From Octopus sinensis (lineage: Eukaryota), in NCBI RefSeq assembly GCF_006345805.1, contig NC_042998.1, positions 10,974,001 to 11,038,000 on the forward strand: a stretch of 64,000 nt of DNA, written 5' to 3'. The notes under the pieces were generated by a model, which saw only the letters and a program-made list of their open reading frames with translations, made no database searches and had not been told where the DNA came from. Every line of letters starts with the position of its first letter. Within the stretch, counting starts at the first letter, position 1. This document shows, one piece after another, positions 5,743 through 59,620 of this stretch. Made by a program: the position numbers and the translations under genes.

Positions 5743-7462
5743 ATCATTCATCATCATTGTTCGACAGTGGTCGAGACAATGGAATTTACCATGCTACGCC
5801 AGACTTCACGGTCCATCATGGCATTACGGAGGTCCTGTTGCTGGATGCCTGTATCCCTGGAGATTACATCAGGGTAGGAGAGTGTGCGCCCTCTGGTATT
5901 GCGAGTAGATGGCTTTTCAGCTCTACAACAATGTCCAGCAAACTGGACTCTCCTACCTTTCACAAGAGATGACACAGGTGGTAGTTTCCCATATATCTGC
6001 ATTTTGGTTTGATGGCGCTTCCACGAGAGATTTTGAGCTCTCATAAGGAGGCGAGTGTAGGTTCCATCCAACCGCCTCTCAAGCTTCTTTGATAACGTCC
6101 AGGTTTCTGAGCCATATAGTAGAATTGGTTCGACTGTGGCTTTGAATATTTCAAGTTTGAAGTCTCTACTTAGATTTGATGACCAGATCTTATGCATGTC
6201 ATTACAGGCTGACCAGGCCATACACTTTCTAGTTAGAAAGTCTTTTCCAGATGATGATATGTATGACCCAAGATATTTATAATCAGAAAAACATATTTAA
6301 AGGCGCACTGTTGAGAGTATGGATGATGATGCAATCACTGTTGGACAGGCACTTGTTTATGTATTCAGTTTTGGTCTCATTGAGGTAAAGACCTACACAA
6401 TTTGAGGCTTGTTCAAGAGATTGTAAAAGAGACTGGGCATTGGAGAGAGAATCACTGATAAGAGCGATGTCGTCAGCAAAGTCAGTATCTGTCAAGTACT
6501 CAGCTGGGTGTCTGGAACTTCTTCTTGGTTATATTTCAAAGCCCTTGCCAGAGATGATATCAACTGACATACGTAGCACATAATCAACAACAATGATGAA
6601 AAGAAATGGGGCGAGTGTGTCTCCCTGCAGTATTCCGGCTTTGATTGAGAAAGATGATGTTTCTCCGTCAGGGGTTAAGATGGTTGAAAACGTATCTGTG
6701 TAGAGGACCTTGATGGCAGAAATGATTTTGTCTGGTATCCCATAGAGCTTAAGGATTTCAAACATCTTGTACCTATATAGAGAATCGAACGCTTTAGAAA
6801 AGTCTACAAATACCACTGCAAGATCGCGATTAAATGCTTTTGATTCTTCAATAAGTCTGCGTAGGCATAGTATCTGGCTCAGCGTTGAGCGCCCATGTCT
6901 GAATCCATTTTGGTTCTTTCGGAGCAAAGGTTCAACAAAAAGGACAAGACGATTTAGGATCAGTTTGTTGTACAGTTTTGCAGCAATTGACATTAGAGAT
7001 ATACCCCTGTAGTTGGTTGACGAGGGATAAATCGCCTTTTTGGGTATTGGAATGATTTGAGATTGGTGCCAAATCTTTTGGAGCGACAAAGGTGGAAAGG
7101 TTGTGGTTGCAGGGTTGAGCAAAAGTGTGTGAAATCTATCATCCTTCCAAATTACAGCTGGGATGTTGTCGGGACCAAATGCTTTCGAGGCTTTTAGTTG
7201 CTTGGTAGCTGCTGTTAGTTCAAATATAGTAAAAGGGGAGGTGTTGATGTCCAGCGTGTCTGATATAGGCACACTTGGAAGAGTGGGGTTATCAGGGATT
7301 TTGGCATTCTTCCCAAGGAGGTTTTTAAAATGGGTTGACCAATTTTCTAAACGCTTCTTAGCTGATCCCCCTTTAATTCTAATTCATGACCCACAATTTT
7401 TGCCTGATGGGTCTTTGATGGATTTCCAGGCGAGATGGTGTTTTTTACTAATGTGCTCTTTG
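5743..7462 (-). mobile_element. 5'-truncated RTE/RTE-X LINE, frameshifted reverse transcriptase pseudogene
   Basis: ORFs contain NYRGISL, QNGFRHGRST, FVDFSKAFDS, GILQGDTLAPFLF, DFADDIAL and ILLYGSETWTL. Ends in an (ATG)n tail near 5745. Confidence 0.95.
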
Positions 7463-7645: not shown

Positions 7646-7771
7646 TATATATTGTCCGTACGCGCACACACATACGCGTAGAGACACACATGCACAGTTA
7701 CATATACCATACACACATACACATATATATGTATGATATATTTTTGTATACATACGTGTGTATATAGATTG

Positions 7772-9579: not shown

Positions 9580-9993
9580 AGGCGGGGAGCTGGCAGAAAC
9601 GTTAGCACGCCGGGCGAAATGCGTAGCCGTATTTCGTCTGCCGCTACGTTCTGAGTTCAAATTCCGCCGAGGTCGACTTTGCCTTTCATCCTTTCGGGGC
9701 GATAAATTAAGTACCAGTTACGCGCTGGGGTCGATGTAATCGACTTAATCCGTTTATCTGTCCTTGCTTGTCCTCTCTGTGTTTAGCTCCCTGTGGGTAG
9801 TAAAGAAATAGGTATTTCGTCTGCCATTACGTTCTGAGTTCAAATTCCGCCGAGGTCGACTTTGCCTTTCATCCTTTCGGAGTCGATAAATTAAGTACCA
9901 GTTACGCGCTGGGTCGATGTAATCGACTTAATCCGTTTGTCTGTCCTTGCTTGTCCCCTCCATGTTTAGCCCCTTGTGGGCAATAAAGAAATA
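9580..9993 (+). mobile_element. SINE family B with a tandemly duplicated 183 bp body
   Basis: GTATTTCGTCTGCC at 9629 and 9812. Confidence 0.9.
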
Positions 9994-10654
9994 TATATTT
10001 AAAGGAGTTAGCTTTGTTTCAGGTATGCATATCAGGTCTCCAAACTGAGGATTAATAGATATCTTGCTATGCGGCTTTCTACAGCAACAGCCAACTTACG
10101 AGTCATAGTTTCTTTCTATTCCCTCTCCCTGATAAGGTTCATACAAAAATTATGGTGTTCATCTTTCCTTATATCAATAAACCATGACAAAATATAAACA
10201 AATATTGTCCATTAAAATGCATACCACGTGTTTATTGTTAGTTCTAAATTTTAAGACAGTATATTCGCTAATGCAAACAAAATGCCAATAGTCAGCTATG
10301 CAAATTCAATAATAATTAAGTCAGCGCCTTTCATGGAATTCTGACTGAGGATCAATCAACTGCAAATGTTATAACAACAAAAATCGGAGCTATATTAATA
10401 ATTTCACGTTCTATAATTATAATTTAGCAAATTAAAACCCGAGAAAAAGGAATAGAATATTTAAATATGAAAATATAAAGCGTAAACAAATAATCTCAAA
10501 ATGTAAAATTAACAGAACGGAAAGAGTAGAGACCTGAAGAATAGAAAGATTTATTGAAACAAGATATGAAATTTTATATTGATTTCTTAAATTGGAACAA
10601 GGTTATAAATTCCAAGAATTGATGTGCTTGACTATATCGTATCGAGTCAGAATT

Positions 10655-15502: not shown

Positions 15503-15840
15503 GAAATATGTTACGAAAGAATATATAAAATACACGTGGAAATGTAAGGGTAAAATATGAAAAATCAACGAAAATGCACATTGCAAATAAAAAAAGGCTA
15601 TTTATGACAGGTAGTGACAAATATATACATTTAGATTGACTGAGGTAGTAATACGAGTCATAAAAGTCATTATTATGAGATGATTATAACATGATAATAA
15701 AGTAAGAGAACAAAACGGACCATGATTTACGCAAAGCTATTCATCGTTTGATATATATATATTAGTAGTAATGGTTTTATATATATATGTGTATACATTA
15801 ATAGTAATGGTTATATATATATATTATATATATTATATAT

Positions 15841-15875
<35 letters not shown>

Positions 15876-15896
15876 GGCAGCGGCTTATATATAAGC

Positions 15897-15979
15897 GCCA
15901 TACTGAGCGCCATACTAATACATTGTTTGTTTGTTTCCCACCTGCCTTCGTCTTTTGTCTATTTTCATAAAGCTTCCCG

Positions 15980-15981
<2 letters not shown>
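15897..15981 (+). repeat. Fragment of the Penelope-like short repeat family also at 18205-18405 and 50695-50900
   Basis: CTGAGCGCCATACTAATACA...CCACCTGCCTTCGTCTTTTG...CTTCCCGTTA. Confidence 0.8.
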
Positions 15982-16035
<54 letters not shown>

Positions 16036-16272
16036 AGACCGGAGTAACACATAAATGTGAAACAAGGTGGAAAAAGAGTACTCAAATACCAGTGGTAGAG
16101 TAATATGCTTTATTTTAAGCAGCAGAAATTCAACAAAATCTGTTATGGGTACATAGATTCAGATGAATGTGGTAATTAAGTTGAGGCACCAGCATTTAGT
16201 ACGGTATTATCCTCACAATTTCAAAGTAAGGTGATTTAAATCAAAACAAGCAACAAGGATATCCAGAGGTAA

Positions 16273-18198: not shown

Positions 18199-18269
18199 GT
18201 ATATGATAGATCGTTAGCTCCTACACACATTTTTTCTCCTTGTTTCTCTCCTTGTTTCTTTCTGTCTAC

Positions 18270-18305
18270 CTTTCTGTCGAAGAGCGTAGGCTCGAAACGT
18301 AAAAG
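18270..18305 (+). ncRNA. Minimal hammerhead variant (core CUGUCGAA) in a ~200 bp (TA)n-flanked repeat (18205-18405)
   Basis: CTTT-CTGTCGAA-GAGC-GTAG-GCTC-GAAA-CGTA-AAAG. Layout is that of Penelope-type minimal HHRs but the core is non-canonical. Confidence 0.55.
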
Positions 18306-18423
18306 ACTTGTTCTATTTCTATTCCTGAGCGCCATACTAATACATTTGTTTGTTTGTACTCCACCTGCCTTCGTCTTTTGTTTATTTTCGTAAACCTTCC
18401 CGTTACATATATATATATGTATG

Positions 18424-18463
<40 letters not shown>

Positions 18464-19452
18464 TATATGCATCTGTCTATATATGTTTATATAAATACAC
18501 ACACTTGCGCGCGTACGCGCACACAAATATACACATCCCAGAGTGTGACAGGTTCGAAAGGTGTATTCCACCACTTATAATGTAGTACTAAAAAAGATAT
18601 GTCTGAAGGTAAATACACCACCTATAACTTAATCGTTAGTATTACAGAATATATCTTTGCCTGATAAACGATCATGCATTAAGAGATGAAGTTTAACCTA
18701 TATATCTACATGTCTAGGAACGCGCGCCACCACACACACGCACGCACACATATTTGTAGCTTACAAGAGTGCTTGACAGGCTATGAGAATATCGAATACC
18801 AAATTGTTTGGGGGGTGGAGCTGGAGGTGAGTACATTTGGAAGAAATGCTACGAATTGTTTTGTGAGATTACATGACAGGTGTAGGAGCGATACATCAGA
18901 CGCGTAAGCAACATGCCGTCGTCTTGAGCAAAGTGAAAGTCGTTAGAACATCTAATTACTTCCGTGTTGTTTACGGAAGACAGTAGCTTGCTAAAACCCT
19001 TTCTCGGTGAATTATGTAATTACAATGTGATGTCACGAATCGATTCAGCGCGTATTGTTTCAATATATAAAGTGTTTCGCAATTCACGCAAGCATTTTAT
19101 TTCTATATACCACAGAAATGCCACAGAAACTCTGAAAGTAACCTGATATATATATATGTATATATGAAAGAAGTTAAACATAGCAGTTAAATTGCCAAGA
19201 AGATGCCTTTGTTTATTATATTGCATCATAACACATTTTAAAGTGCAAGTATGAACACTAACACATAGATGAAATGTCACGTAGGCAAAAAAGAACTTAG
19301 TATGACAGCGCAATAATTAAAAAGGGAAGATTCTATGTGTATTATATGTTTTGTTTCAACTGTATACATACATACCTAGATACATACATATACATATATA
19401 TATATTATATATATCTATATATATATATATATTATATAATATATATATATAC

Positions 19453-19483
<31 letters not shown>

Positions 19484-19505
19484 CATACATATATATATAT
19501 ATATC

Positions 19506-19538
<33 letters not shown>

Positions 19539-19554
19539 TTACATATATATATAT

Positions 19555-19599
<45 letters not shown>

Positions 19600-19748
19600 T
19601 ATTTATATTATAGAGGGCATTATACATACATGCAGGAGGCATTCTACATACACGCCATACGCTAAGAGGGACAATCAGCATTTCTACCAAAAATATTACT
19701 AATCCCACCGAATGCAATTTTTCAAAGAAAGACATTTAAAAATATATA

Positions 19749-19794
19749 GACCTGTATCACAGTGATTTCATACTTACGTAATCATCAGCAGGCC
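19749..19794 (-). ncRNA. Type I hammerhead ribozyme
   Basis: Reverse complement of 20778-20823. Confidence 0.8.
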
Positions 19795-20223
19795 TGAATT
19801 ATACCATAAATAAACAACGACCCCGCCTCGCTTAAGCCGATCAGCTACTGATCAACATCAACGAGCACATGGTTGAATTTATTACATACTATATCCGGAT
19901 GAATGCAAACTTTTACGAATTGCATTTCGGGAGAGGAAAAGTTTTTTCGGAATATAAAATTAGCAATTAAGGACAACTACTTAATAAGGAAAACTTAACA
20001 AGAAATTGTCAGGAGAAGCGTAAAAACCTCATAAGAGAAAAAATTTCGAAAATAATTATTTCTTATTGAACATATTAATTTATATATAGAGGAATTAACA
20101 TACATGCCCGGAGGGCATTCTACATACACGCCATACGAAAGAGGACAATCAGTCATTTCTACCAAAAATATTACTAATCCCACCGAATGAAATTTTTCAA
20201 AGAAAGACATTTAAAAATATATA

Positions 20224-20269
20224 GACCTGTATCACAGTGATTTCATACTTACGTAATCATCAGCAGGCC
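20224..20269 (-). ncRNA. Type I hammerhead ribozyme
   Basis: Reverse complement of 20778-20823. Confidence 0.8.
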
Positions 20270-20777
20270 TGAATATACCATAAATACACAACGACCCCGC
20301 CTCGCTTAAGCCGATCAGCTAACTGATCAACATCAACGAAGCACCATGGTTGATTTTATACATACTATATCCGGATGAATGGCAAACTTTTACGAATTGC
20401 ATTTCGGGAGAGGAAAAGTTTTTTCGGAATAAAAATTTAGCAATTAAGGACAACTACTTAATAAGGAAAACTTAACAAGAAATTGTCAGGTAGATAGCGT
20501 AAAAACCTCATAAGAGAAAAAATTTCAAAATAAATTATTCTATGAACATATTAATTTATATATATTTGCTTATCTACCTGACAATTTCTTGTTAAGTTTT
20601 CCTTATTAAGTAGTTGGTCCTTAATGCTAAATTGTTATTCCGAAAAACCTTTCCTCTCCCGAATGCAATCGTAAAAGTTTGCATTCATCCGGATATAGTA
20701 TGTCTACAATCTATCAAACAGTTGAGTTTGATCGGTTAGCGATCGGCGGGGCGGTCGGGGTTTTTATTGGTATATCA

Positions 20778-20823
20778 GGCCTGCTGATGATTACGTAAGT
20801 ATGAAATCACTGTGATACAGGTC
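20778..20823 (+). ncRNA. Type I hammerhead ribozyme
   Basis: GGCCTG-CTGATGA-TTAC-GTAA-GTAT-GAAA-TCACTGTGA-TA-CAGGTC. Stem I is 6 bp, stem II has a GTAA tetraloop, stem III is palindromic, triplet AUA. Confidence 0.82.
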
Positions 20824-21083
20824 TATATATTTTTAAATGTCTTTCTTTGAAAAATTGCATTCGTGGGATTAGTAATATTTTGGGTAGAAATGACTGATTG
20901 TCCCTCTTAGCGTATGGCGTGTATGTAGAATGCCTCCTGGATGTATGTATAATGCCCTCTATATATATTAATATGTTCAATAAGAAATAATTATTTCGAA
21001 ATTTTTTCTCTTATGAGGTTTTTACGCTATCTACCTGACAATTTCTTGTTAAGGTTTCCTTATTAAGTAGTTGTCCTTATTGC

Positions 21084-21115
<32 letters not shown>

Positions 21116-21319
21116 ACTATATATATATATACATATATATATATACATACATATATATATATAATATATATATATACATATATATATATATTATATATAT
21201 ATATATATACATACATATATATATATACATGCATATATGGCAACAGGGCGTCACTAAGGGTGCAAATAACATGAAATGAAATGAGTGCGTACATGCGTGT
21301 GTGTGAGTTTGTGTTTGCG

Positions 21320-22524
21320 TATATATACCTAAAAGTAACTGGAAACGTCTGTAGGACAAGGCGTTGTAGTTCAGGCCTCCGCCACTAGAAATCACTTCAT
21401 GCATCCCTCAATCATTATAATGCTGACCGATGTCGTTGAGTGTAATCTTATGGCCACGTGGTGCGAACTTCGCTTTGCAGTGCTTCTCCCCTGTTCGTAG
21501 ATTTTTTGCGATGGCTGAAACAGAGGAACAACGTGCTTCCGTGAAATTCTGTTTTCTGCTGGAGAAAACGGTGTCCGAAACAGTTTCATGTTTGTAACAG
21601 CTTACAAAGATGTTACTATGAGCAAAACACAAGTTTACAAGTTGTTTTCACGCTTTAGGAACGGTCACCTGTCGCCTGAAGACCAACCTCATTCAGGAAG
21701 ACCGTCGACACATCCGGAGAGAATGAAAGCATTGAAAATTCCTGATCTAATCTTGGCGAACCATCACTGAACAATTGACGAACTTGTTAATATGACTGCG
21801 GTGTCCAGGAGCTCCTACTAGCGAATTTATAGCGAGGAATTGCGAATGAAAGGCGCAGTAAAATCTATGCCTCGATTGATCACGGAAGATCAAAAGCAGT
21901 CACGAGTGAATGCGTGTGGTAAAATGAAAGAACAGTAGGAAGTGAATCGGGACCTTTTTTTGAAGGTCATCATTGGTGATGAAAGCTGGTGCTACGAAAT
22001 TTTGCACATGTGGAAGAAGCGAAGAAAAGAAAGATGGAGGCGTTAATAGGCATAACTTTGAAAGAGTTCCAGCACTGCTTCAAACAGTCGAAAACGTGTC
22101 TAGACTGATGCATTCCTTTAAATAAAGAATACTTTGAAGGCAATTGCAGCGTGGAAGGTGTTTGTAAGCCATTTAAGAAACACACAAAGGCCGTTCGATT
22201 CACTTCAACATTTAAGTTTAATTTGTCAAAATATTTTCGTCGCTTTAAGACCGCGACCTGTTCACTGACAAAAATCCGTGCTGCACAAATTAAACTTAAA
22301 TGTTGAAGTGAATCGAACGGCCTTTGTGTGTTTCTTAAATGGCTTACAAACATCTTCCATGCTGCAATTGTTTTCGTTTCAGCACACGATCTCAGATCAA
22401 ATCACTTGCTATGCAAGTACATCTCCGTAAAACTTTGAAGGCAATGAAAATGTAAATATGTAAAAACTAAGTGAATAAAATAATATTGCAAAATTCCGGT
22501 TTTTGGGGGGATACCCTTTGTATA
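21320..22524 (+). mobile_element. Degenerate, internally deleted mariner transposon
   Basis: EQRASVKFCFLLEKT...AYKDVTMSKTQVYKLFSRFRNGHLSPEDQPHSGRPS, then IIGDESWCY, then the C-terminal FQHCFKQ...YFEG. Stops and frameshifts present. Confidence 0.85.
22145..22431. mobile_element. 287 bp fold-back insertion with a 14 bp target-site duplication, nested in the mariner; Penelope-like
   Basis: TSD ACTTTGAAGGCAAT at 22131-22144 and 22432-22445. Inverted arms at 22141-22226 and 22285-22370. HHR-shaped fold at 22223-22271(-). Confidence 0.85.
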
Positions 22525-23979: not shown

Positions 23980-24685
23980 AAACACACATACACATGCAAA
24001 CACACATACACATGCAAACACACATACACATGCAAACATACATACACATGCAAACACACATACACATGCAAACACACATACACATGCAAACACACATACA
24101 CATGCAAACACACATACACATGCAAACACACATACACATGCAAACACACATACACATGCAAACACACATACACATGCAAACATACATACACATGCAAACA
24201 TACATACACATGCAAACATACATACACATGCAAACACACATACACATGCAAACACACATACACATGCAAACACACATACACATGCAAACACACATACACA
24301 TGCAAACACACATACACATGCAAACCACATACACATGCAAACACACATACCATGCAAACATACATACACTGCAAACATACTACAACACATGCACACACAT
24401 ACACATGCAAACACACATACACATGCAACATACATACACATGCAAACACCATACACATGCACACACATACACATGCAAACCACATACACATGCAAACACA
24501 TCACATGCAAACACACATACACATGCAAACATATACACATGCAACACACACATACACATGCAAACACACATACACATGCAAACACACATACACATGCAAA
24601 CACACATACACATGCAAACACACATACACATGCAAACTACATACACATGCAAACACACATACACATGCAAACACACATACACATA
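23980..24685. repeat. 18 bp minisatellite (ACACACATACACATGCAA)n
   Basis: Directly visible; translates as HTYTCK/MQTHIH repeats. Confidence 0.95.
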
Positions 24686-30019: not shown

Positions 30020-30219
30020 TAATATAAGGGATATTAGCCAACCGAATATGGCTAGGAACAGGGCAGGGTAGTGGGGGTGTCACTGTTGCATTTAGCCCCA
30101 GGCGAACATCAACGTCAGGCCTATCTGGTGACATTGATGTTCGCCTGGGGCTAAATGCAACAGTGACACCCCCACCACCCTGCCCTGTCCCTAGCCATAT
30201 TCGGTTGGCTAATATCCCT

Positions 30220-30226
<7 letters not shown>
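30020..30226. repeat. Near-perfect fold-back (98 bp arms, 11 nt spacer)
   Basis: 30020-30117 is the reverse complement of 30129-30226 with about 3 mismatches. Confidence 0.95.
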
Positions 30227-32830: not shown

Positions 32831-33371
32831 ATAGTCTTAGACTATTTTATCTTTCTCACTAGACCGCTAGTAGCAGAAAATAGAATTTTTTTGCTACCCT
32901 GATATTTATTAATTAATGATTTTTTAGCTAATTTTGAAATTAAATCAGCAGTTAATATTTGCTACTGAGAAAACTGCGCGGTAGCGGTGGATTTTGAAAA
33001 TTTAGAGCATATTGGCTTGAGGCTTCCTTGCTGTAGCCTCGAGGACATATTCTCGTCCTAGGCTTCTCTGCTGATGAGACACGCCAGTTGTAAGCAAATT
33101 TAATTTGATTGATTTGGTTACCAAAGTTTGTCGAAACAATGCATAGTCCAGAGATGAAAAGGGGTAAATGTTTTTATTTCTCTTCCAATTTCAGAATTAC
33201 AACTATTTAGCGGTTTGAGTTTGGCTGCTCTTTCTAGTGAGTCGAATGGCCTATCAGGGCCATTCCTATATTGTTGAATGTATATTATATAGTCTTTGAC
33301 TACTTTCTCTTTCTCACTAGACCGCTGGCAGCGGAAAAAAATTTTTCTAGAATTTTTTTGCTACCCTGATA
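32831..33371 (+). mobile_element. 458 bp HHR-bearing monomer with a ~75-80 bp terminal direct repeat (retrozyme or non-autonomous Penelope-like)
   Basis: 32831-32904 is repeated at 33289-33371. HHR at 33066-33153. Microsatellites on both sides. Confidence 0.8.
33066..33153 (+). ncRNA. Type I hammerhead ribozyme, canonical core
   Basis: CTCTG-CTGATGA-GACA..(47 nt)..TGTC-GAAA-C-AATGCATA-GTC-CAGAG. Confidence 0.88.
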
Positions 33372-37189: not shown

Positions 37190-38455
37190 ACAGGTCATCC
37201 CGTAAGTTCTGTCCGATCTTACCTTTTCTAAAACTGAATGAAATTTAATGGTGTTTTAGAATGTCTAATGGAATTAAAATAATTTTTATGCATTCGTGTA
37301 CATTTAAACTAATTAAATATTATTTTACAGAATAAAAGAATTAAAATTTCTTTCATTAAAACCCTTTCTAACATGGAAGTATCCAAAGAGCATTCGAGGC
37401 ACATAATGCTTTATGAGAACAAAAAGGAAACTCTGAGCCGAAGCGACTCGAAACATGAATTCAGTTTAAGGGAAAGAATGCTTGAATGAAAGAACTTGCA
37501 GTAGATGGTTTGCAAAATTCAGAAGTGGAGATTTCAGCCTTGAAGATGAAGATCGAAAAGGACGTGCACTTGAGTTTGATGATAAGCTCCTTGAGGCATT
37601 ACTTGAAGAAAATTTTGCATTATCAGTTGACGAATTGGCAATAAAGCTTAGTTTAAACCATACAATTGTTCATTGTCATCTTCAACAAGTTGGAAAGGTT
37701 CATGAACTTGGAAAATGGGTGCCTCATGAATTGTCCGAATGCAACCGCGAATCCCGAGTTGACATCTGCTCTTCTCTCCATTCTCGCCGACTCATTTCAC
37801 ACTTTTTGGATAGACTTGTGACTGGTGACGAAAAAAGGGTCTTCTATCGAAATGTTAAACGTCGTAAGCAGTGGCTTGGTAAAAGGGAAAAAGCTCAACC
37901 ACATAGGAAAAAGGTTCTTCTCTCTATCTGGTGAGATTGCAAAGGAGTAATTCGCTTTGAATTGTTACCACCTAATGCAACAATCAATACTCAAGTCTAC
38001 TGTCAGCAATTAGAGCTTTTGAACCAAGCTTTGAAGAAAAAAAGACCTGGTTTAGTGAATCGAAATGGAGTGATGTTTAATCAGGACAATGTGCGGCTCC
38101 ACACTGCAAAGATCACATCACAGAAGATCGGAGAGCTTGGTTGGGAAAAACTTCCTCATACAGCTTATTCTCCCGACCTTGCTCCTTCAGACTATCATTT
38201 GTTTCGTAGTTTACAGAATCATTTGGGGGACATAACTTTCGCAAGTCAGGAGGAGGTCGAAACTGACATTTCAGAGTTCTTCGCTTTGAAACCAAAATAG
38301 TTTTATATTGATGGGATTAAAAAGCTTGTAATTAGATGGAAGGAAGTAATAGATAATCCAGGAAAGTACATTGATGATTAAATTTCAATTAAATATAACA
38401 TTTGATCACTTGTTTTCTTTATTCAAAATTCGAACAGAACTTATGGAAACCGGAT
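37190..38455 (+). mobile_element. Near full-length mariner (D,D34D-type) with pseudogenised transposase (37373-38381)
   Basis: WVPHEL, LVTGDEK, QDNVRLHT and YSPDLAPSDYHLFRSL motifs. Imperfect TIRs CCCGTAAGTTCTGTCCGA / TCGAACAGAACTTATGG. In-frame stops and a frameshift. Confidence 0.95.
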
Positions 38456-39777: not shown

Positions 39778-40230
39778 ATATTATATTAAATTAGAGACAA
39801 AACCACTATTAGGCAAATCAAACAATGAAAAACTTAAGCCAATACATAAGATTATTTAATTTATATTATTTAAATATATAACAAAATTATTAAAAAAATA
39901 TCATTAATATCACACTACGATCGTTTCATGGCTGCTAACTTCTTCAAATTTTCGAGTCACATTCATTCATCAGGTGGTTTAAATATTTATCTTGGCGAGG
40001 TTTAAACGATCGTAGTGTGATATTAATTATATTTTTTTAATAATTTTGTTATATATTTAAATAATATAAATTAAATAATCTTCTGTATTGGCTTAAGTTT
40101 TTCATTGTTTGATTTGCCTAATAGTGGTTTTGTCTCTAATTTAATATAATATAATATTTTACTATAAAATTGGATTCAATCCTAAATCTGATTTTTCTCT
40201 GTAAGTTTGGATTTATTTCCTAATATTTAT
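39778..40230. mobile_element. Inverted-duplicated HHR-bearing element (Penelope pLTR-like)
   Basis: Arms at ~39779-39926 and 40004-40151. HHR at 39913-39976(-). Related fragment at ~4085-4170. (TA)n flanks. Confidence 0.8.
39913..39976 (-). ncRNA. Type I hammerhead ribozyme
   Basis: Minus strand: CAC-CTGATGA-ATG..(33 nt)..CAT-GAAA-C-GATC-GTA-GTG. Confidence 0.78.
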
Positions 40231-40565: not shown

Positions 40566-41320
40566 GAGCGAGCTGGCAGAAACGTCAGCACGCCGGGCGA
40601 AATGCGTAGCCATATTTTGTCTGCCGTTACGTTCTGAGTTCAAATTTCGCCGAGGTCGACTTTGCCTTGCATCCTTTTGGGGTCGATAAATTAAATACCA
40701 GTTACGCACTGGTTTCGATCTAATCGACTTAAGCCATTTGTCTGTCCTTGTTTGTCCCCTCTGTGTTTAGCCCTTTGCGGGCCGTAAAGAAATAGGTATT
40801 TCGTCTACCGCTACGTTCTGAGTTCCAATTCCGCCGAGGTCGACTTTGCCTTTCATCCTTTTGGGGTCGATAAATTAAATACCAGTTACGCACTGGGGTC
40901 GATCTAATCGACTTAATCCATTTGTCTGTCCTTGTTTGTCCCCTCTGTGTTTAGCCCCTTGCGGGTCGTAAAGAAATAGGTATTTCGTCTGCCGCTACGT
41001 TCTGAGTTCAAATTCCGCCGAGGTCGACTTTGCCTTTCATCCTTTTGGGGTCGATAAATTAAATACCACTTACGCACTGGGGTCGATCTAATCGACTTAA
41101 TCCATTTGTCTGTCTTTGTTTGTTCCCTCTGTGTTTAGCCCCTTGTGGGTCGTAAAGAAATTGGTATTTCGTCTGCCGCTACGTTCTGAGTTCAAATTCC
41201 GCCGTGGTTGACTTTGCTTTCGATGAAACAAGTACCAGTTACGCTCTGGGGTCGATGTAATCGAGTAACCCCCTTCCCCCAAAATTTTCAAGGCCTTGTA
41301 CCTAGAGTAGAAATTATTAT
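40566..41320 (+). mobile_element. SINE family B with about four tandem 184 bp bodies
   Basis: Unit starts at 40612, 40796, 40980 and 41164. Confidence 0.92.
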
Positions 41321-43655: not shown

Positions 43656-45665
43656 TGTATGTATGTATGTATGTCTATCTATCTGTGTGTGTGTGTGCAT
43701 TCACATATGTATGTGGTCTTTCCCTTTTTTGAATTTATAATAAATTTTGGTCGGCCGCCTGCTTGGTAGCAAGGCTGTGAAGGAAAGGATCTTGTTGTAT
43801 GTACGTATATATGTATGCATGCTTGTATGTATGTATGTATGTATGTATGTATGTATGTATGTACGTATGTATGTATGGCATTATTATAACAATGAGCAGA
43901 TGTATGTATCACGTGTTACCTCTGTAAATTACTAAAGAATGTGCAAAACACTATCACCACTAGCGCCTCTCTCTCCCTTATTCTCTTTCTGTCTGTATGT
44001 TTGTCTCTCTCCCTCTCTATTTGACTCACTCATGAGTACCAATGGTACTTCAATTTATATTTCCATTTTTTCTAAACTGCGCATTCTTTTTAATCCTGGC
44101 ACGATAATTTGTCACTTGATGGTAAAATAGAAGTTAAGCTCTTTATAGAAATATTACATTTTATGAACACTTAATCCCAACATAAAAACAAGGTGCCTCA
44201 CCCAGATTCGATGTTAGCCACAAATAAATTAAATTCAACTTTTTTCAACGCAATGGGGTAACAGATATTATAATCACCAATTTTGGGATGAAAAGAGATA
44301 CAGGGCTACATCTACATTACTCCCACTTAAGCCTAATGCTCCACGTTATTTATACTGAGCACGACTAAACTACAGTTTACATGATAATATATAGGCTATA
44401 GGCCCTTCTGTCCGTAAACCGACTTCTTAGAAATGCAGTCAAAAGAAATTCTAGGTGAATTAGGGTTTCAGTTGAATGTCGTAATGCTATTTTAATAGTT
44501 TCTTTCTCCTAGGCTTGGGAACTAATCGATTGAAAGATTCTTATATAATGATCATAACTTTTGAGAGCATATGGCGACCAAGAAGCAGAGAGGCGATGCC
44601 GTTTGTTTTGTGTGTTGAATGGCATTTTAAAGACAGGCAAACAAATAAATAAATGACTAAGAAATAGTAAACGCACGCAATCTGAAGTAGTTGAAAAAAA
44701 AATGTAATATATACACAAACCGCAGAAAAACACAGTGAGATGCTATGTTAGTAGTATTTTATTGCAACTCGTTACAGATAAGCAAAACCAACAACTGTCA
44801 TCTTTTCTGTTTGACATCGGTGGTTGACCGACTCGGAAAAGATTTGACAGAGCAACAAATTGTAGCAGCATATCTAAAATAGTATTTGAATATCTATTCA
44901 AATATACGTAACTGAGCGATGGGAAAAATGTTTTCTCAAGATTTCGACATTTAAAACTATGTTGCTGCGATATACATTTCAACAAACTCTTTGACAATAC
45001 TAGATAATACTTAGATATTTTTTCGTTAAGTAGTTTGATAATCATTGCATTGTTTGTACTCGGATGTAATCGATCCATTTGCTAATTGATAGTAATTTTC
45101 AGAAAAAGAGTATTGCATATATAACTTCTCTCTTGTCCGCTTTATAAAGTTGATATTCATTGTCTTTCTTCAGCAGACCTTTTTAGTATTTCCCCTGGCT
45201 CTCCGGGTTCTGTGTTCAATCCTTGTCGCGGTCAAGTTTGTCATTCGCTCGTATGATCTAGGAATCAATAAATTTTGCTTCTACACATTGTTATGTTTAT
45301 GATATTTTCGTTCCTGAAAGTTTAAATCATGTGTTAACCTCCCGACACCACAATCTGTGACGCTTCACTTTACTTCCCCACAGATGTTGTCGTGTATCTT
45401 AACTTTAGGTCAGCTCTGATCAGACGTACCTGATCAGAACGCATTTCAATAATAATTTGTTTTTTCAGATGCAATGTAACATGGATTATATTATTCAATG
45501 TGCCTTTGTCGTGGTGCAGTATATCTCCGACGAAAAATTAACTATTATTTCTAGTTGGTCGTGCAACGTCAAAGAAACTCCATCGTTGGCTTCTTTTGAT
45601 TTTGCTGAATTTAGATTTGGATGATGCAGAAACCTATTGCTGACAATGTTTAGAAAATCTACAAC

Positions 45666-46206
45666 AGAAACTCGGGTCCGTGTGTATCACGTCAGGCTGG
45701 AGATGGGAACGATGACTTCCCTTTGCAAATACTGATATGGCACATACAGTGTGTCAATAGCCAGCTGCAGGAGATGTCTACCTGGGGCTATAAGCTACAG
45801 TAGCATCAACCCTTAAGGGTTAGCCACATTTAGGTGGCAAATATACTTCACGATATCGTGCAGCTACTGTTTATACCTCGCTCAGAGATTTATTATTGCT
45901 AGTTTTCACTTTTTCGAGAGCTGTGATTTTCGTCACTGGAAACAGTACATATATATTTGCATTGAGAATCATTTCCCCGCCAACCGGTGGTTGTCACACG
46001 CTGATGACGGGTCAATACCCAGAAACTCGGGTCCGTGTGTATCACGTCAGGCTGGAGATGGGAACGATGACTTCCCTTTGCAAATACTGTTAGGGTACAA
46101 ACATTGTGTCAATAGCCAGCTGGAGGAGATGTCTTCCTGGGGATACAAGCTACAGTAGCATCAACCCTTAAGGGTTAGCCACATTTAGGTGGCAAATATA
46201 CTTCAC
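45666..46206 (+). mobile_element. About 1.5 copies of a 355 bp HHR-bearing monomer (retrozyme-like)
   Basis: 45666-45851 is repeated at 46021-46206. Complete HHR at 45995-46039 and the 3' half of a second HHR at 45666-45684. Confidence 0.85.
45995..46039 (+). ncRNA. Type I hammerhead ribozyme, canonical core
   Basis: CACACG-CTGATGA-CGGG-TCAATA-CCCA-GAAA-C-TCGG-GTC-CGTGTG. Confidence 0.88.
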
Positions 46207-46873
46207 AAAGAAATAATAATTTTAGGGCAAGAAAACTGCGAGAGAACGTGGTTAGCATGGAAAAAGCAGAAACAGAGTGGCACACAAAAGAACGGAACTA
46301 AAAAACGAATACACGATAATGGAAGAGAAAGAAACATAAAACTTGAATAAGAAGAAGTAGTAACCGGTGGAACTAAGATAACAGTGGTTATAATTATATA
46401 TAATGGGAAAGGAGTGCTGTAGGGAATAGAAAGTTGAGCGTTTTCAGATGATCAGCCAAACTAGTTATAGGCTGTACTTTGTGAGTTACATGCACAATAA
46501 TCCTGCCAGCGTCTTCACTCTTGAGCCATCGGACACAGCCGTATGATTAAAACCATTTAGTTATGCATGTCTCTTCACATCCTGCAAAGATCAAAAACTA
46601 AATGTAGCATGTCCCGTAAGTACTCCATCATACTTGAAGAGAGTCATCAACACCCAAAATCTAGATAACGTTTAATCAGCACTGCAACTACTGCAAGGTC
46701 ACTAACTGAACCGCTTCAGTTAATCAGCAATTCTTGTCATTTGACAAAATGATAATCAGCAATTTTGCAGAACTTTTTTCCTTCTACATCATTTCTCAAA
46801 TTCTGAGAGAAAAACTGCGGTACAAAAAAGTCTTTGCTTCTGCTGACTGCATGATATACAACTCTAACCTGCA

Positions 46874-47471
46874 TACACTTGATAAATTTTCTCAAAAAAT
46901 GTCCCTTTCTAACCACCAGATTCAGCTTCTTGTATACACTCTATGTCACGCTGGTGAGACCCATATTGGAGTACGGGATTCAAGTCTCTTCTCCTTATCT
47001 CCTCAAAGACATACAGCATCTCGAAAGAGTCCAGAAGCTGGCTACCCGCATGGTTCTTGGACTCAAGAATTTGTCTTATGAAGAAAGGCTGAAGACGCTC
47101 AACCTTTATTCTCTAGAAAAACAACGACACCGTGGTGATCTCATTCTTGCTCACAGCATCATAAGCGGAAAGTGTAACTTCTCGAAAGAGCTATTCTTCA
47201 CTCCTGCTCCAGAGCGTCGGCTGCGGGGTCACTCCGAAGAGCTCTATCTGCGACGATTTCATCTCAATCGAAGGAGAGGGACTTTCTCCGTCCGGGTTGC
47301 GGATCTGTGGAATAAGCTGCCAGACGAGATGGTGAAGATGCCGACGACCGCTCGGTTCAAGTGGCCTGAACTCTTTACATGAACACCACCCTGTACATAA
47401 CTCCATGTCCCCCTACATGGCCTTGCTTTTTGCTTTTTGAGCCAAAAAATTAACTAACTAACTAACTAACA
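46874..47471 (+). mobile_element. 3' end of a CR1-clade LINE
   Basis: LYVTLVRPILEYG..SPYL.KDIQHLERVQKLATRMV.GLKNLSYEERLKTLNLYSLE..R.RGDLI..FSVRVADLWNKLP, then an (AACT)n tail. Confidence 0.93.
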
Positions 47472-49049: not shown

Positions 49050-49147
49050 GTTAATCCAAACATGAAAGCACAAAAAAAAAACACAACAACGCGAGGACGT
49101 GGAACAAATATAGTATTATTGGACGCTCAGGAAGGAAGGAAGAAGGG

Positions 49148-49182
49148 GTTCAACGTTTCGAGCGGAGCTCTTCGTCGGAAAC
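49148..49182 (-). ncRNA. Minimal hammerhead variant (core CCGACGAA) in a ~210 bp (TA)n-flanked repeat (49049-49260)
   Basis: Minus strand: GTTT-CCGACGAA-GAGC-TCC-GCTC-GAAA-CGTT-GAAC. Confidence 0.6.
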
Positions 49183-49319
49183 ATAGGAGAAGGAAAGATC
49201 CCGAGAAGGGAAGACAGAGGAAAAAAAATCGCCAGCGGTACACACGCGGTCACATTTTGATATATATATATATATATATAAACTACATACATCTACACAT
49301 ATACAAATGCATAATTACA

Positions 49320-49717: not shown

Positions 49718-49722
<5 letters not shown>

Positions 49723-50542
49723 TCAATATAGGGTGGCAAAAAAAATTTTGTAGAACTTTTTTGCCACCAGCGGCCTAGTGGGAAAAAATTAAATAGTCAT
49801 AGACCATTTTAAGTTCAACATCAAACAATCAAGGAACGGCCATAATAGGCCATTCACCCACTAGAAATAACGCCAAAGCTTCAACCGCAAATAAAAGTCA
49901 ATTCCGTAAACAGGAGAAAATTTAAAAAACATTACAGGGTAAATGTTTTTAAATTTTCTCCTGTTTACGGAATTGACTTTATTTGCGGTTGAAGGTTTGA
50001 AGCTTTGGCTGTTATTTCTAGTGGGTGAATGGCCTATTATGGCGTTCCTTGATTGTTGATGTTGAACTTAAAAATGGTCTATGACTATTAATTTTTTCCC
50101 ACTAGGCCGCTGGTGGCAAAAAAATTCTACAAAAGTTTTTTGCCACCCTATATTGATTAATTATGAATTTTCTGGTAATTCGTAATGGAATCGACGGCTT
50201 ATATTTATTTGCTGCCGATAAATTTGGCGCGAGTGCGATGATTTGAAAATTTTAGGTCAGATATTACCTGGCAGGGTCGGAAATGCCTCGTGAAAAAATC
50301 TGTTCCGACTTGTGGCTATTTCTTACTGAAGAATCTGAGGGGCTATGGAAGATTGGCTTGATTTAATTTAATCAGTTAGTTTACCATTAAACACGCAGAT
50401 GAAACGGGTGCATCGTATAAGAAATTACAGGGTAAATGTTTTTTAATTTTCTCTGTTTACGGAATTGACTTGTATTTGCGGTTTTGAAGCTTTGGTGTTA
50501 TTTCTAGTGGGTGAATGGCCTATTATGGCCGTCCTTGATTGT

Positions 50543-50545
<3 letters not shown>
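49718..50545 (+). mobile_element. 493 bp HHR-bearing monomer, partial tandem with an inverted 5' portion
   Basis: Inverted arms at ~49718-49933 and 49942-50160. ATTACAGGGTAAATG at 49931 and 50424. HHR at 50318-50425. (TA)n on both sides. Homologous to 32831-33371. Confidence 0.85.
50318..50425 (+). ncRNA. Type I hammerhead ribozyme, canonical core
   Basis: ATTTCTTA-CTGAAGA-ATCTG..(58 nt)..CAGAT-GAAA-CGGGTGCATC-GTA-TAAGAAAT. Stem I is 8 bp and stem II is 5 bp. Confidence 0.88.
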
Positions 50546-50583
<38 letters not shown>

Positions 50584-50694: not shown

Positions 50695-50900
50695 AACGGG
50701 AAGCTTTATGAAAATAAACAAAAGACGAAGGCAGGTGGAGTACAAACAAACAATTGTATTAGTATGGCGCTCAGGAATATAAATAAAACAAGTCTTTTAC
50801 GTTTCGAGCCTACGCTCTTCAACAAAAAGATACAGAGAAAAGAAACACAGAGAGAAACAAGGAGAGAAAAAAATGCGTGCAGAAGCTAGCGATTCAACAT
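50695..50900 (-). repeat. Copy of the 18205-18405 family with a minimal HHR variant at 50794-50830
   Basis: Minus strand: TCTTTTTGTTGAAGAGCGTAGGCTCGAAACGTAAAAGAC. Confidence 0.8.
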
Positions 50901-50920
50901 GTAATTATAATTACATACAT

Positions 50921-51090
50921 AATTATAACAAAGGCTTAGCTTGCGCCTCACCACGCACTGAAAAATAGACGTCAATAGACACTATTGCGAAAATAAATTC
51001 TCCGACACTTTACACATAGGAGGCAATAGTGTCTTTTGACGTCTATTTTTCAGTGCATGGTGAGGCGCAAGCCAAGCCCTTGTTATAATT
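50921..51090. repeat. Fold-back/MITE-like element (68 bp arms)
   Basis: 50921-50988 is the reverse complement of 51023-51090 with few mismatches. Confidence 0.9.
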
Positions 51091-51234
51091 GTGTATCTGA
51101 TTATAAAATATTTATATTAATTTATCTACGAGCTTTTATTTTGGCGCTGACCACTTGATAAAACACATTTATGAATTTACCCTTTATTATTATTATAATT
51201 AATTGGAATATATATATGCATGTATGCATACATA

Positions 51235-58392: not shown

Positions 58393-59620
58393 TTTTCTTA
58401 CCTGTTGCTTTGCCACTGAACGATCGGTACGCCAAGGGTGCCCTCTCTCCCCGCTTCTCTAAGTTTTGGCCCTAGAGCCATTGCTGAGGAAGTTGGAAGC
58501 TACGAAGGGCGCCCGCAAGATCTAGGGTGCGGAAAGTCAACTTCGGTGTATATGGACGACATCACCGTCATCGTATCCAGGGTCGAGCACCTACAGTGGG
58601 TAGGTGAGGCCTTAAGGGATTACGAAGCGGTGGAAGGAGCCAACTCGGCACCTGGAGGGACAAGTCGATGCCTTCCGACAGCGTCGTGGGACGTTGGACG
58701 GAAGGGCCAGTGAAAATGCTTGGAGTCTGGTTAGATCCAGATCTCCAGATAGAGAAGAATTGGAGCGAGGTGGCGAGCAAGGTAGCTCTTCTAACTCAGA
58801 CCTGGTCTGAGCAGAGGCTGTCCTTAAAAGGGAGGACAGAGGTTGCAGAGGTGTTTATTGCCTCTGTAATCACTTACCGCCTAACCGTCGTGCCTTGCCC
58901 CGATTCGTGGCTGAACAAGCTGGAACGCATGCTCTTTCGCTTTTTGTGGAGGGGCAGCAGACCCCCTGTAAGGCGGTCTATCAGCTGTTAAAAGTCACTG
59001 AAGTGTGGGCTAGTGATGCCATGGCTAAAAATGCGCAGACAAGCGCTCAGGCTTAGGCATCTCTGGCTTTACCTGGACGGTGAGCAGGTGTGGTCTCCGT
59101 TCGTCAAGCTGTTATTTCGACAGTTCACATCGTTTACCAAACTGAACCCATGGATCAAGTGCAGACCCAGGTTGGGCGTGTGGCATGCGGAATGCCATCA
59201 GGCACTCGTGCTTCTCTCCCAGTCGGGCAACGCCGGTGGCGGGGGTACTACCTCGTTCTTCTATAGAGGGTTAGTAGAGTTCAAGTGTAACGACGTTCTG
59301 GGAGAAACCCTAGGCTTCGACGTAGATCAACTGGCCAACCTGTTCCAAAGAACATTCGGGCCGGGGCCTATGGATAATTACCAAAAGTCCCTGGCCTGGC
59401 AATGTTAGAGAGGAGCTTTACCGGTTCGAGATAGGCCCTGTAGACATGGGTGTGCGCCTTCGCCAGATTGTGCAAGATGCGAGCAGGACAGTGAAACTGT
59501 CCTGCACGCGATTGTGCAATGCCTCAAGGTGAATGAACTCTGGGCTTATGTCAAACACCTGCTGTCGCATTCGTGAAGAGTACAACTGTCGTGCGAATCT
59601 GTAATTAAGCTCGTTCCGCT
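58393..59620 (+). mobile_element. Decayed Tx1/L1-clade LINE ORF2 fragment (RT C-terminus plus CCHC zinc knuckle)
   Basis: YMDDITVIVS, VKMLGVW, LSLKGR...FIASVITY, FRFLW, ALPVRDR...CARCEQDSETVLHAIVQC. GC-rich relative to its flanks. Confidence 0.88.

Follow-up and report, generated by a model that had tools for sequence, protein, structure and literature searches.

The locus at 19613-21088 of the window, that is, of the whole 64,000-nucleotide stretch of Octopus sinensis DNA analysed here, is probably a real and young insertion, made in one event, of a non-autonomous Penelope-like element (PLE), in other words a non-LTR retrozyme. It comprises two head-to-tail units on the minus strand and an inverted copy on the plus strand, placed head to head within (TA)n. 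The earlier note on this DNA had the structure right and left the element class unnamed. The locus is a fresh example of a known element class, not a new system.

Layout of the insertion and differences between its copies

Self-BLAST and alignment bore out the dimer and the inverted copy of about 1.1 units that the earlier note had described, and refined the span of the insertion to 19613-21088. Unit 1 (19613-20088, minus strand) is 476 bp long, has 33% GC and a longest stop-free frame of 44 aa, and enters (TA)n at its 3′ end. Unit 2 (20089-20564, minus strand, 476 bp) lies head-to-tail upstream of unit 1. An inversion junction of three T (20565-20567) separates its 5′ end, head-to-head, from that of unit 3 (20568-21088, plus strand), a 5′-truncated inverted copy of 521 bp or 1.1 units. 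Unit 3 is without the first ~70 nt of the unit, meets the unit boundary at 20959 and then enters the following round for ~129 nt, up to its end in (TA)n. At ~129 bp, the stretch of the right arm past the boundary exceeds the 30-40-bp tail given for PLEs (PMC8557442). The copies together form a long inverted repeat (19960-21086) with arms at about 19960-20496 and 20571-21086, and the loop of ~70 nt between the arms consists of the 5′ part of the unit itself.

The tandem amounts to exactly 2.0 units, and it both starts and ends on the boundary, followed by a short TA run. Past the 3′ boundary, the sequence is identical in the two junctions that span it, and the start of unit 2 coincides with this boundary. 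Tandem Repeats Finder (TRF) reported a period of 475 with 2.0 copies under three of four parameter sets, the relaxed ones, and missed the dimer under the settings of the 2026 retrozyme pipeline (2 7 7 80 10 50 1000), probably as a result of indel noise. Every copy holds element sequence only, with no flanking DNA included, and no arm of the insertion at 19613-21088 starts or ends at a predicted cleavage site. Self-BLAST detected no further copy of the 475-bp unit in the 64-kb window. The impure (TA)n array on the left (19380-19612; TRF period 2, 120 copies) is the presumed insertion target, and a second impure array lies on the right (21087-21238; TRF period 2, 77 copies). No target-site duplication is discernible at the insertion, the 34-nt match between the two arrays being uninformative.

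The longest stop-free frames across the units span 44-67 aa at a GC content of 0.33-0.35, so there is no long reading frame, although sequencing indels could mask a somewhat longer one. We rejected the idea of a PLE coding remnant within the unit, as there is no long frame and nothing was recognisable by eye in the six frames. Because no frame exceeds 67 aa and the 3′ boundary returns to the unit's own start in both arms, we regard the unit as non-autonomous.

Units 1 and 2 are 93.8% identical over 497 columns. Over 483 columns, in unit slices that are 1-2 nt short at their ends, they differ by 8 substitutions, none of them a transition, and by 20 indels of one base each. For comparison, 15 control pairs, chosen by hand from other repeats of the window, showed 10 indels and 121 substitutions over 2544 columns, 77 of the substitutions being transitions. 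The units depart from these controls with Fisher p values of 4e-12 for indels against substitutions and 5e-4 for transitions, both to be read in the knowledge that the control pairs are not independent. At 55 of the 95 variable columns it is unit 3 that deviates, and its noisiest stretch (20698-20775, plus strand) differs from unit 1 by 8 substitutions and 11 indel events over 98 columns. The indels between copies, which had earlier been described as noise-like, do carry the signature of sequencing error, and this signature is local to the insertion at 19613-21088 and to a second insertion at 49720-50546. It is therefore likely that the actual copies are almost identical and that the insertion is young, most of the differences being errors of the consensus where polishing was poor. 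Nanopore accuracy suffers at real inverted duplications (PMC7229812), although the sequencing platform of the present assembly may differ. Three ~100-bp hairpins elsewhere in the window are clean, with 1 indel in 286 columns, and we therefore rejected hairpins as the sole cause of the noise; they can be at most a partial one. These three belong to a set of short near-perfect palindromes with arms of about 100 bp at 22136-22375, 30020-30226, 39794-40136 and 50905-51106; some of the palindromes look like MITEs or DNA-transposon ends, and the one at 30020-30226 abuts (TA)n.

Hammerhead ribozymes and their predicted RNAs

Each unit carries a type I hammerhead with the conserved CUGANGA...GAAA...UH core, helices I-III and an open helix I. 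The ribozymes lie at 19748-19795 in unit 1 (minus strand; C3 at 19788, predicted cleavage after 19755), at 20223-20270 in unit 2 (minus strand; C3 at 20263, predicted cleavage after 20230) and at 20777-20824 in unit 3 (plus strand; C3 at 20784, predicted cleavage after 20817). The predicted cleavage site is 141-142 nt from the unit 3′ end, and the predicted hammerheads on opposite strands are 521 bp apart. The build consists of a 7-bp helix I, a 3-bp helix II and an 11-nt, self-complementary helix III, and it includes the AUA triplet, the GUAA loop (GTAA in the DNA) and, at the helix II base, the U-U, as previously claimed. A 46-nt hammerhead had been reported as identical in all three copies; the identity stands, but the length does not, since the identical block spans 82 nt and the ribozyme 48 nt including the 7-bp helix I. 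An explanation of the 82-nt block by selection on the ribozyme was not supported (p about 0.06, with 15 difference clusters placed at random).

The 34-nt hammerhead core has three exact matches in the window and none in 100 shuffles. Our type I descriptor gave no strict match in 30 shuffles of the window, a version permitting a long helix II gave one match in 100 shuffles, and the ribozyme core had no match in prokaryotic genomes. The Rfam hammerhead models did not match the locus either at the gathering score or at E<=10, and the identification therefore rests on the core consensus and the pairing of the helices. Three Rfam matches with E<1e-4 were discarded: they are miRNA-hairpin models far below their gathering scores and are due to the inverted repeat.

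The computed folds favour a pair of ribozymes over a single one. The active fold of a single ribozyme has -8.3 kcal/mol against a minimum of -10.3 kcal/mol, so the minimum-energy fold is not the active one, and its fold energy is unremarkable against shuffles (z about -1 to 0.3). In contrast, two 48-mers reach their cofold minimum as the double hammerhead, at -28.3 kcal/mol compared with 2 x -8.3, and helix III gains -10.1 kcal/mol as a self-duplex between molecules compared with +0.8 kcal/mol as a hairpin. The predicted monomer (19755-20229, minus strand), which comprises the 475 nt between two predicted cleavage sites, is a candidate circular RNA. Its circular fold has -104.2 kcal/mol against -90.3+/-5.5 for shuffles, none of 60 being as low (z -2.5).

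It had been proposed that a minus-strand transcript would release a 475-nt monomer and that a read-through transcript would form ~500 bp of dsRNA. The geometry of the first proposal holds, with minus-strand sites 475 nt apart, and the second agrees with the 468-494 cross-arm base pairs that we computed for read-through in either direction. Release of the monomer from a full read-through does not hold, since the ribozyme is buried: all 48 nt of the unit 2 ribozyme are paired with the antisense arm in the full minus-strand transcript, as are all 48 nt of the unit 3 ribozyme in the full plus-strand transcript. With one ribozyme wholly buried in the hairpin, monomer release and dsRNA formation are mutually exclusive in one molecule, and release of the monomer requires transcription to begin within the dimer, no further than ~290 nt into unit 2. 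Minus-strand RNA started internally could thus yield the 475-nt monomer, and read-through could fold into a hairpin of ~480 bp in which the ribozyme is silenced. An internal promoter is described for Penelope (PMC8557442). If host transcription crosses the locus, it would be a source of ~480-bp dsRNA.

Other hammerhead elements in the window

Three hammerhead families lie within the 64-kb window. The second is represented by an element at 49720-50546, which consists of (TA)n, an inverted truncated arm, ~1.25 direct units and (TA)n again. Its type I hammerhead at 50326 (plus strand), which was read by hand, has a helix II region of 68 nt and an additional G in helix III. The beginning of the direct arm is ~7 nt past the cleavage-site position, the inversion junction has a 3-nt overlap, and the element is as indel-rich as the first, with 9 indels against 2 substitutions between its arms. 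An older relative at 32831-33371 lies between microsatellites, has a 467-bp period and ~1.15 units, and contains an intact long-helix-II hammerhead at 33071. The hammerheads at 33071 and 50326 have a helix II of 55-68 nt, and their helices I-III differ in sequence with the pairing kept. Such long-helix-II hammerheads escape short descriptors.

None of six comparisons between the 475-bp unit and the other hammerhead families of the window scored above shuffles. A boundary motif, similar in the first and the second family, nevertheless occurs at 20955, 32897 and 50146, with ATG as its last letters, immediately past the unit 3′ end. It has three matches in the window and none in 200 shuffles, for a pattern that was defined post hoc and that missed the noisy junction between unit 2 and unit 1. 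The motif is possibly a shared recognition or priming site, even though the bodies of the two families do not align. The third family, at 45665-46206, has a type I hammerhead at 46001 (plus strand) in a clean 355-bp partial tandem that does not lie in (TA)n; its upstream copy begins inside the ribozyme.

Dispersed fragments beside (TA)n, at 18260-18403, 49060-49260 and 50696-50839, carry motifs that resemble minimal hammerheads, with an unpaired A after the core, a 4-bp helix II, a 2-nt insert in helix III and one or two core changes. A stretch at 15811-16158 looks related to these fragments by translation. We consider the fragments to be probably terminal remnants of PLEs. The window is also rich in microsatellites, SINEs and the debris of LINE and mariner elements. 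A SINE-like unit of 183-184 bp is tandem at 9629-10000 and 40613-41221 (2.0 and 3.3 copies) and single at 7768, 31184 and 43390. Broken fragments of LINE reverse transcriptase and mariner transposase occur at 5754-7383, 21490-22140, 37470-38300, 46855-47382 and 58608-59408; Pfam confirmed a reverse transcriptase (RT) at 6286-7383 and mariner domains at 37470-38297, and the remaining fragments were judged by eye. An 18-bp minisatellite at 23980-24684, with about 40 copies at 92% identity, adjoins a 650-bp (CATA)n array.

Element class and origin of the insertion

The class assignment draws on the architecture of the insertion and of its ribozyme, compared here with published descriptions. PLE insertions contain partial tandems, "often" have an inverted 5′-truncated copy adjacent at the 5′ end, and are biased towards microsatellites (PMC8557442); the same pattern was repeated by Goubert et al. 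(PMC8969392). The present locus has (TA)n on both sides, a tandem, and an adjacent inverted copy, truncated at its 5′ end, at the 5′ end of that tandem. Its resemblance to Hydra-clade PLEs (Penelope-9_HM, Penelope-13_HM, Penelope-14_HM and Hydra-1_Obim; PMC8557442) extends to the U-U, the self-complementary helix III with a 1-nt centre, the position of the ribozyme near the 3′ end, the (TA)n target and the inverted 5′-truncated copy at the 5′ end, which is listed for Penelope-13_HM (PMC8557442 File S2). By our own count in that table, the U-U at the helix II base occurs in 14 of 25 Hydra families, a self-complementary helix III of 9-10 nt in all 25, and (TA)n is listed as a target for 26 of 27. 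The helix III of the present unit, at 11 nt against 9-10, is one pair longer, and the U-U is not exclusive to the clade, as it is also found in axolotl HHR_Amex2 (PMC7229834). In contrast to these elements, the present unit has no RT or GIY-YIG frame and has no words in common with the published consensuses consulted, and the Hydra-1_Obim ribozyme differs in sequence.

Similar to metazoan non-LTR retrozymes (PMC7229834; bioRxiv 10.64898/2026.07.22.740005), the locus has protein-less tandem units in a dimer, each with one complete type I hammerhead, and a low GC content (33%). The criteria for retrozymes include at least two such units, a fold below -5 kcal/mol, no protein coding and a GC content below 45-50%, and each of these properties was found. 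The predicted circle is more structured than shuffles, as are those of metazoan retrozymes. At 475 nt, the unit is longer than the 150-450 bp of Cervera and de la Pena 2020 (PMC7229834) but within the 51-972 bp of Li, Clavereau and Pollet 2026 (bioRxiv 10.64898/2026.07.22.740005). Its helix III is an 11-nt self-complement, compared with 1-2 bp in metazoan retrozymes, and the attached inverted arm and the (TA)n target are absent from the portions of the retrozyme descriptions that we compared. The minimal hammerheads in the pseudo-LTRs of Penelope, Poseidon and Neptune (PMC4209133) share the type I, dimer-dependent design and likewise form pairs on opposite strands 100-700 bp apart, as reported for dual PLE hammerheads by Cervera and de la Pena 2014. 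However, they are marked by a long helix II of 7-8 bp, a base left unpaired behind A9, G10.1-C11.1 and the near lack of a helix III, and the present ribozyme has none of these features.

We found no autonomous partner. No frame with RT plus GIY-YIG at the C terminus, as in autonomous Hydra-clade elements, exists in the element, which has no long frame. A Pfam search of 142 of the 159 window ORFs, which left out 8 simple-repeat frames and the 9 shortest ORFs, returned five matches (RT fragments, mariner pieces and one DUF) and no GIY-YIG, PLE or host domain. None of seven words of the unit occurred in the supplement of Craig et al. 2021, which includes the Octopus Hydra consensus, in an exact-word search from which line breaks can hide matches. 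The attribution to Hydra thus rests on architecture, and on that footing we lean slightly towards a Hydra-clade PLE as the mobilising element, with Neptune or another clade accounting for the rest; Neptune elements also favour microsatellites (PMC8557442). An Octopus Hydra element is on record (PMC8557442), 31 recently active Penelope-like families are described in Octopus vulgaris (PMC13282606), and 235 Rfam hammerheads have been counted in the giant squid (PMC6962438).

We provide a putative mechanism for the insertion. A parent multimer would be transcribed, and its hammerheads would cut it into 475-nt monomers, mainly as a double hammerhead formed through the self-complementary helix III. 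The monomers might then be circularised by a host ligase, and the RT/GIY-YIG protein of an autonomous PLE, most likely of the Hydra clade, would nick the (TA)n array. One end of the target would prime at the TA-rich unit boundary and copy 2.0 units of circular or multimeric RNA, and the other end would prime ~129 nt further along and copy 1.1 units. The two cDNAs would finally join head to head in a manner resembling twin priming, which is known from L1. Axolotl and mussel retrozyme monomers were circularised in vitro by host ligase (PMC7229834), and circular templates have been proposed for PLE cDNA of more than unit length (PMC4209133). Only one of nine Xenopus retrozyme dimers was cleaved in vitro (bioRxiv 10.64898/2026.07.22.740005). 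A more far-reaching version, which we put forward tentatively and hold to be rather doubtful, is that a protein-less retrozyme family of ~475 nt, probably of cephalopods, is now being moved by a Hydra-clade PLE and that the near-identical arms, longer than one unit and primed from the two ends of a break in (TA)n, record reverse transcription around an RNA circle made by the ribozyme, by twin priming.

The alternative that survives best, although we think it unlikely, is that the insertion is one-off debris of an autonomous PLE, either its terminal repeats or an internally deleted copy that arose in the course of this insertion, with no self-propagating 475-nt family and no circular RNA stage. 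Most PLE hammerheads lie in truncated copies (PMC4209133), and such debris would suit both the single locus of the unit in 64 kb and arms that do not begin at cleavage sites. However, both arms contain the same frame-less join, in which the 3′ boundary leads to the same 5′ start and on to the ribozyme, and a join found in both arms must already have been in the template. Additionally, the second family keeps a frame-less unit of ~470-490 bp at two diverged loci.

An artefact of assembly or of reads, whereby one real unit was multiplied by a chimeric or fold-back read or by a misjoin through (TA)n, appears improbable to us. The earlier note had warned that the multimer could have such an origin. 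The noise that raised this concern is real, and the error-type differences suggest that effective depth was low or that polishing failed; the insertion also has both of its ends within microsatellites, and a shared artefact could explain why both tandem-plus-inverted loci are noisy. Nevertheless, an artefact is not the leading reading, because the layout fits published PLE insertions (PMC8557442) and recurs in a second, unrelated hammerhead family 29 kb away. A fold-back read would mirror the flank, yet 19614-19959 is not mirrored beyond 21087 (local score 19), nor are the two unique flanks related to each other (scores 22 and 26). Repeated passes of one molecule should alternate in direction, whereas the order here is reverse, reverse, forward. 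The loop formed by the unit's own 5′ part and the tandem that begins and ends on the element boundary also speak against an artefact. Real inverted duplications themselves lower nanopore accuracy (PMC7229812), and yet the three hairpins elsewhere in the window are clean.

We give still less credence to a rearrangement at the DNA level, in which unequal exchange or slippage at the TA-rich boundary would have doubled a single inserted monomer and a template switch during replication would have produced the inversion. Retrozymes have been proposed to grow locally as tandems (bioRxiv 10.64898/2026.07.22.740005), and a tandem that measures 2.0 units exactly and is delimited by a short TA run would be in keeping with this. 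However, no copy contains flanking DNA, and the inverted arm crosses the boundary, continues in the following round and terminates right in (TA)n. Near-identical copies would have to result from two independent events, and the second family shows the same outcome. Triplication of the ODIRA type was rejected, since the inverted copy would then sit in the middle (PMC7229812).

A one-event insertion of a non-autonomous PLE therefore remains our preferred reading, and what it adds can be set against what is already known. Hammerheads in tandem repeats occur widely among animals, and a PLE origin of retrozymes has been argued in print by Li et al. 2026 (bioRxiv 10.64898/2026.07.22.740005). The mobilisation of retrozymes by PLEs and the mechanism behind tandem and inverted PLE insertions are still hypotheses, and we found no description of cephalopod retrozymes or of PLE twin priming in the open literature listings. 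A very young, protein-less insertion with a complete PLE footprint and a ribozyme of the Hydra type points to a candidate partner clade and offers a small test substrate. If the more far-reaching version of the mechanism were true, the locus, together with the second family, would provide direct evidence, in the form of insertion footprints, of how the PLE machinery moves retrozymes and builds tandem and inverted structures.
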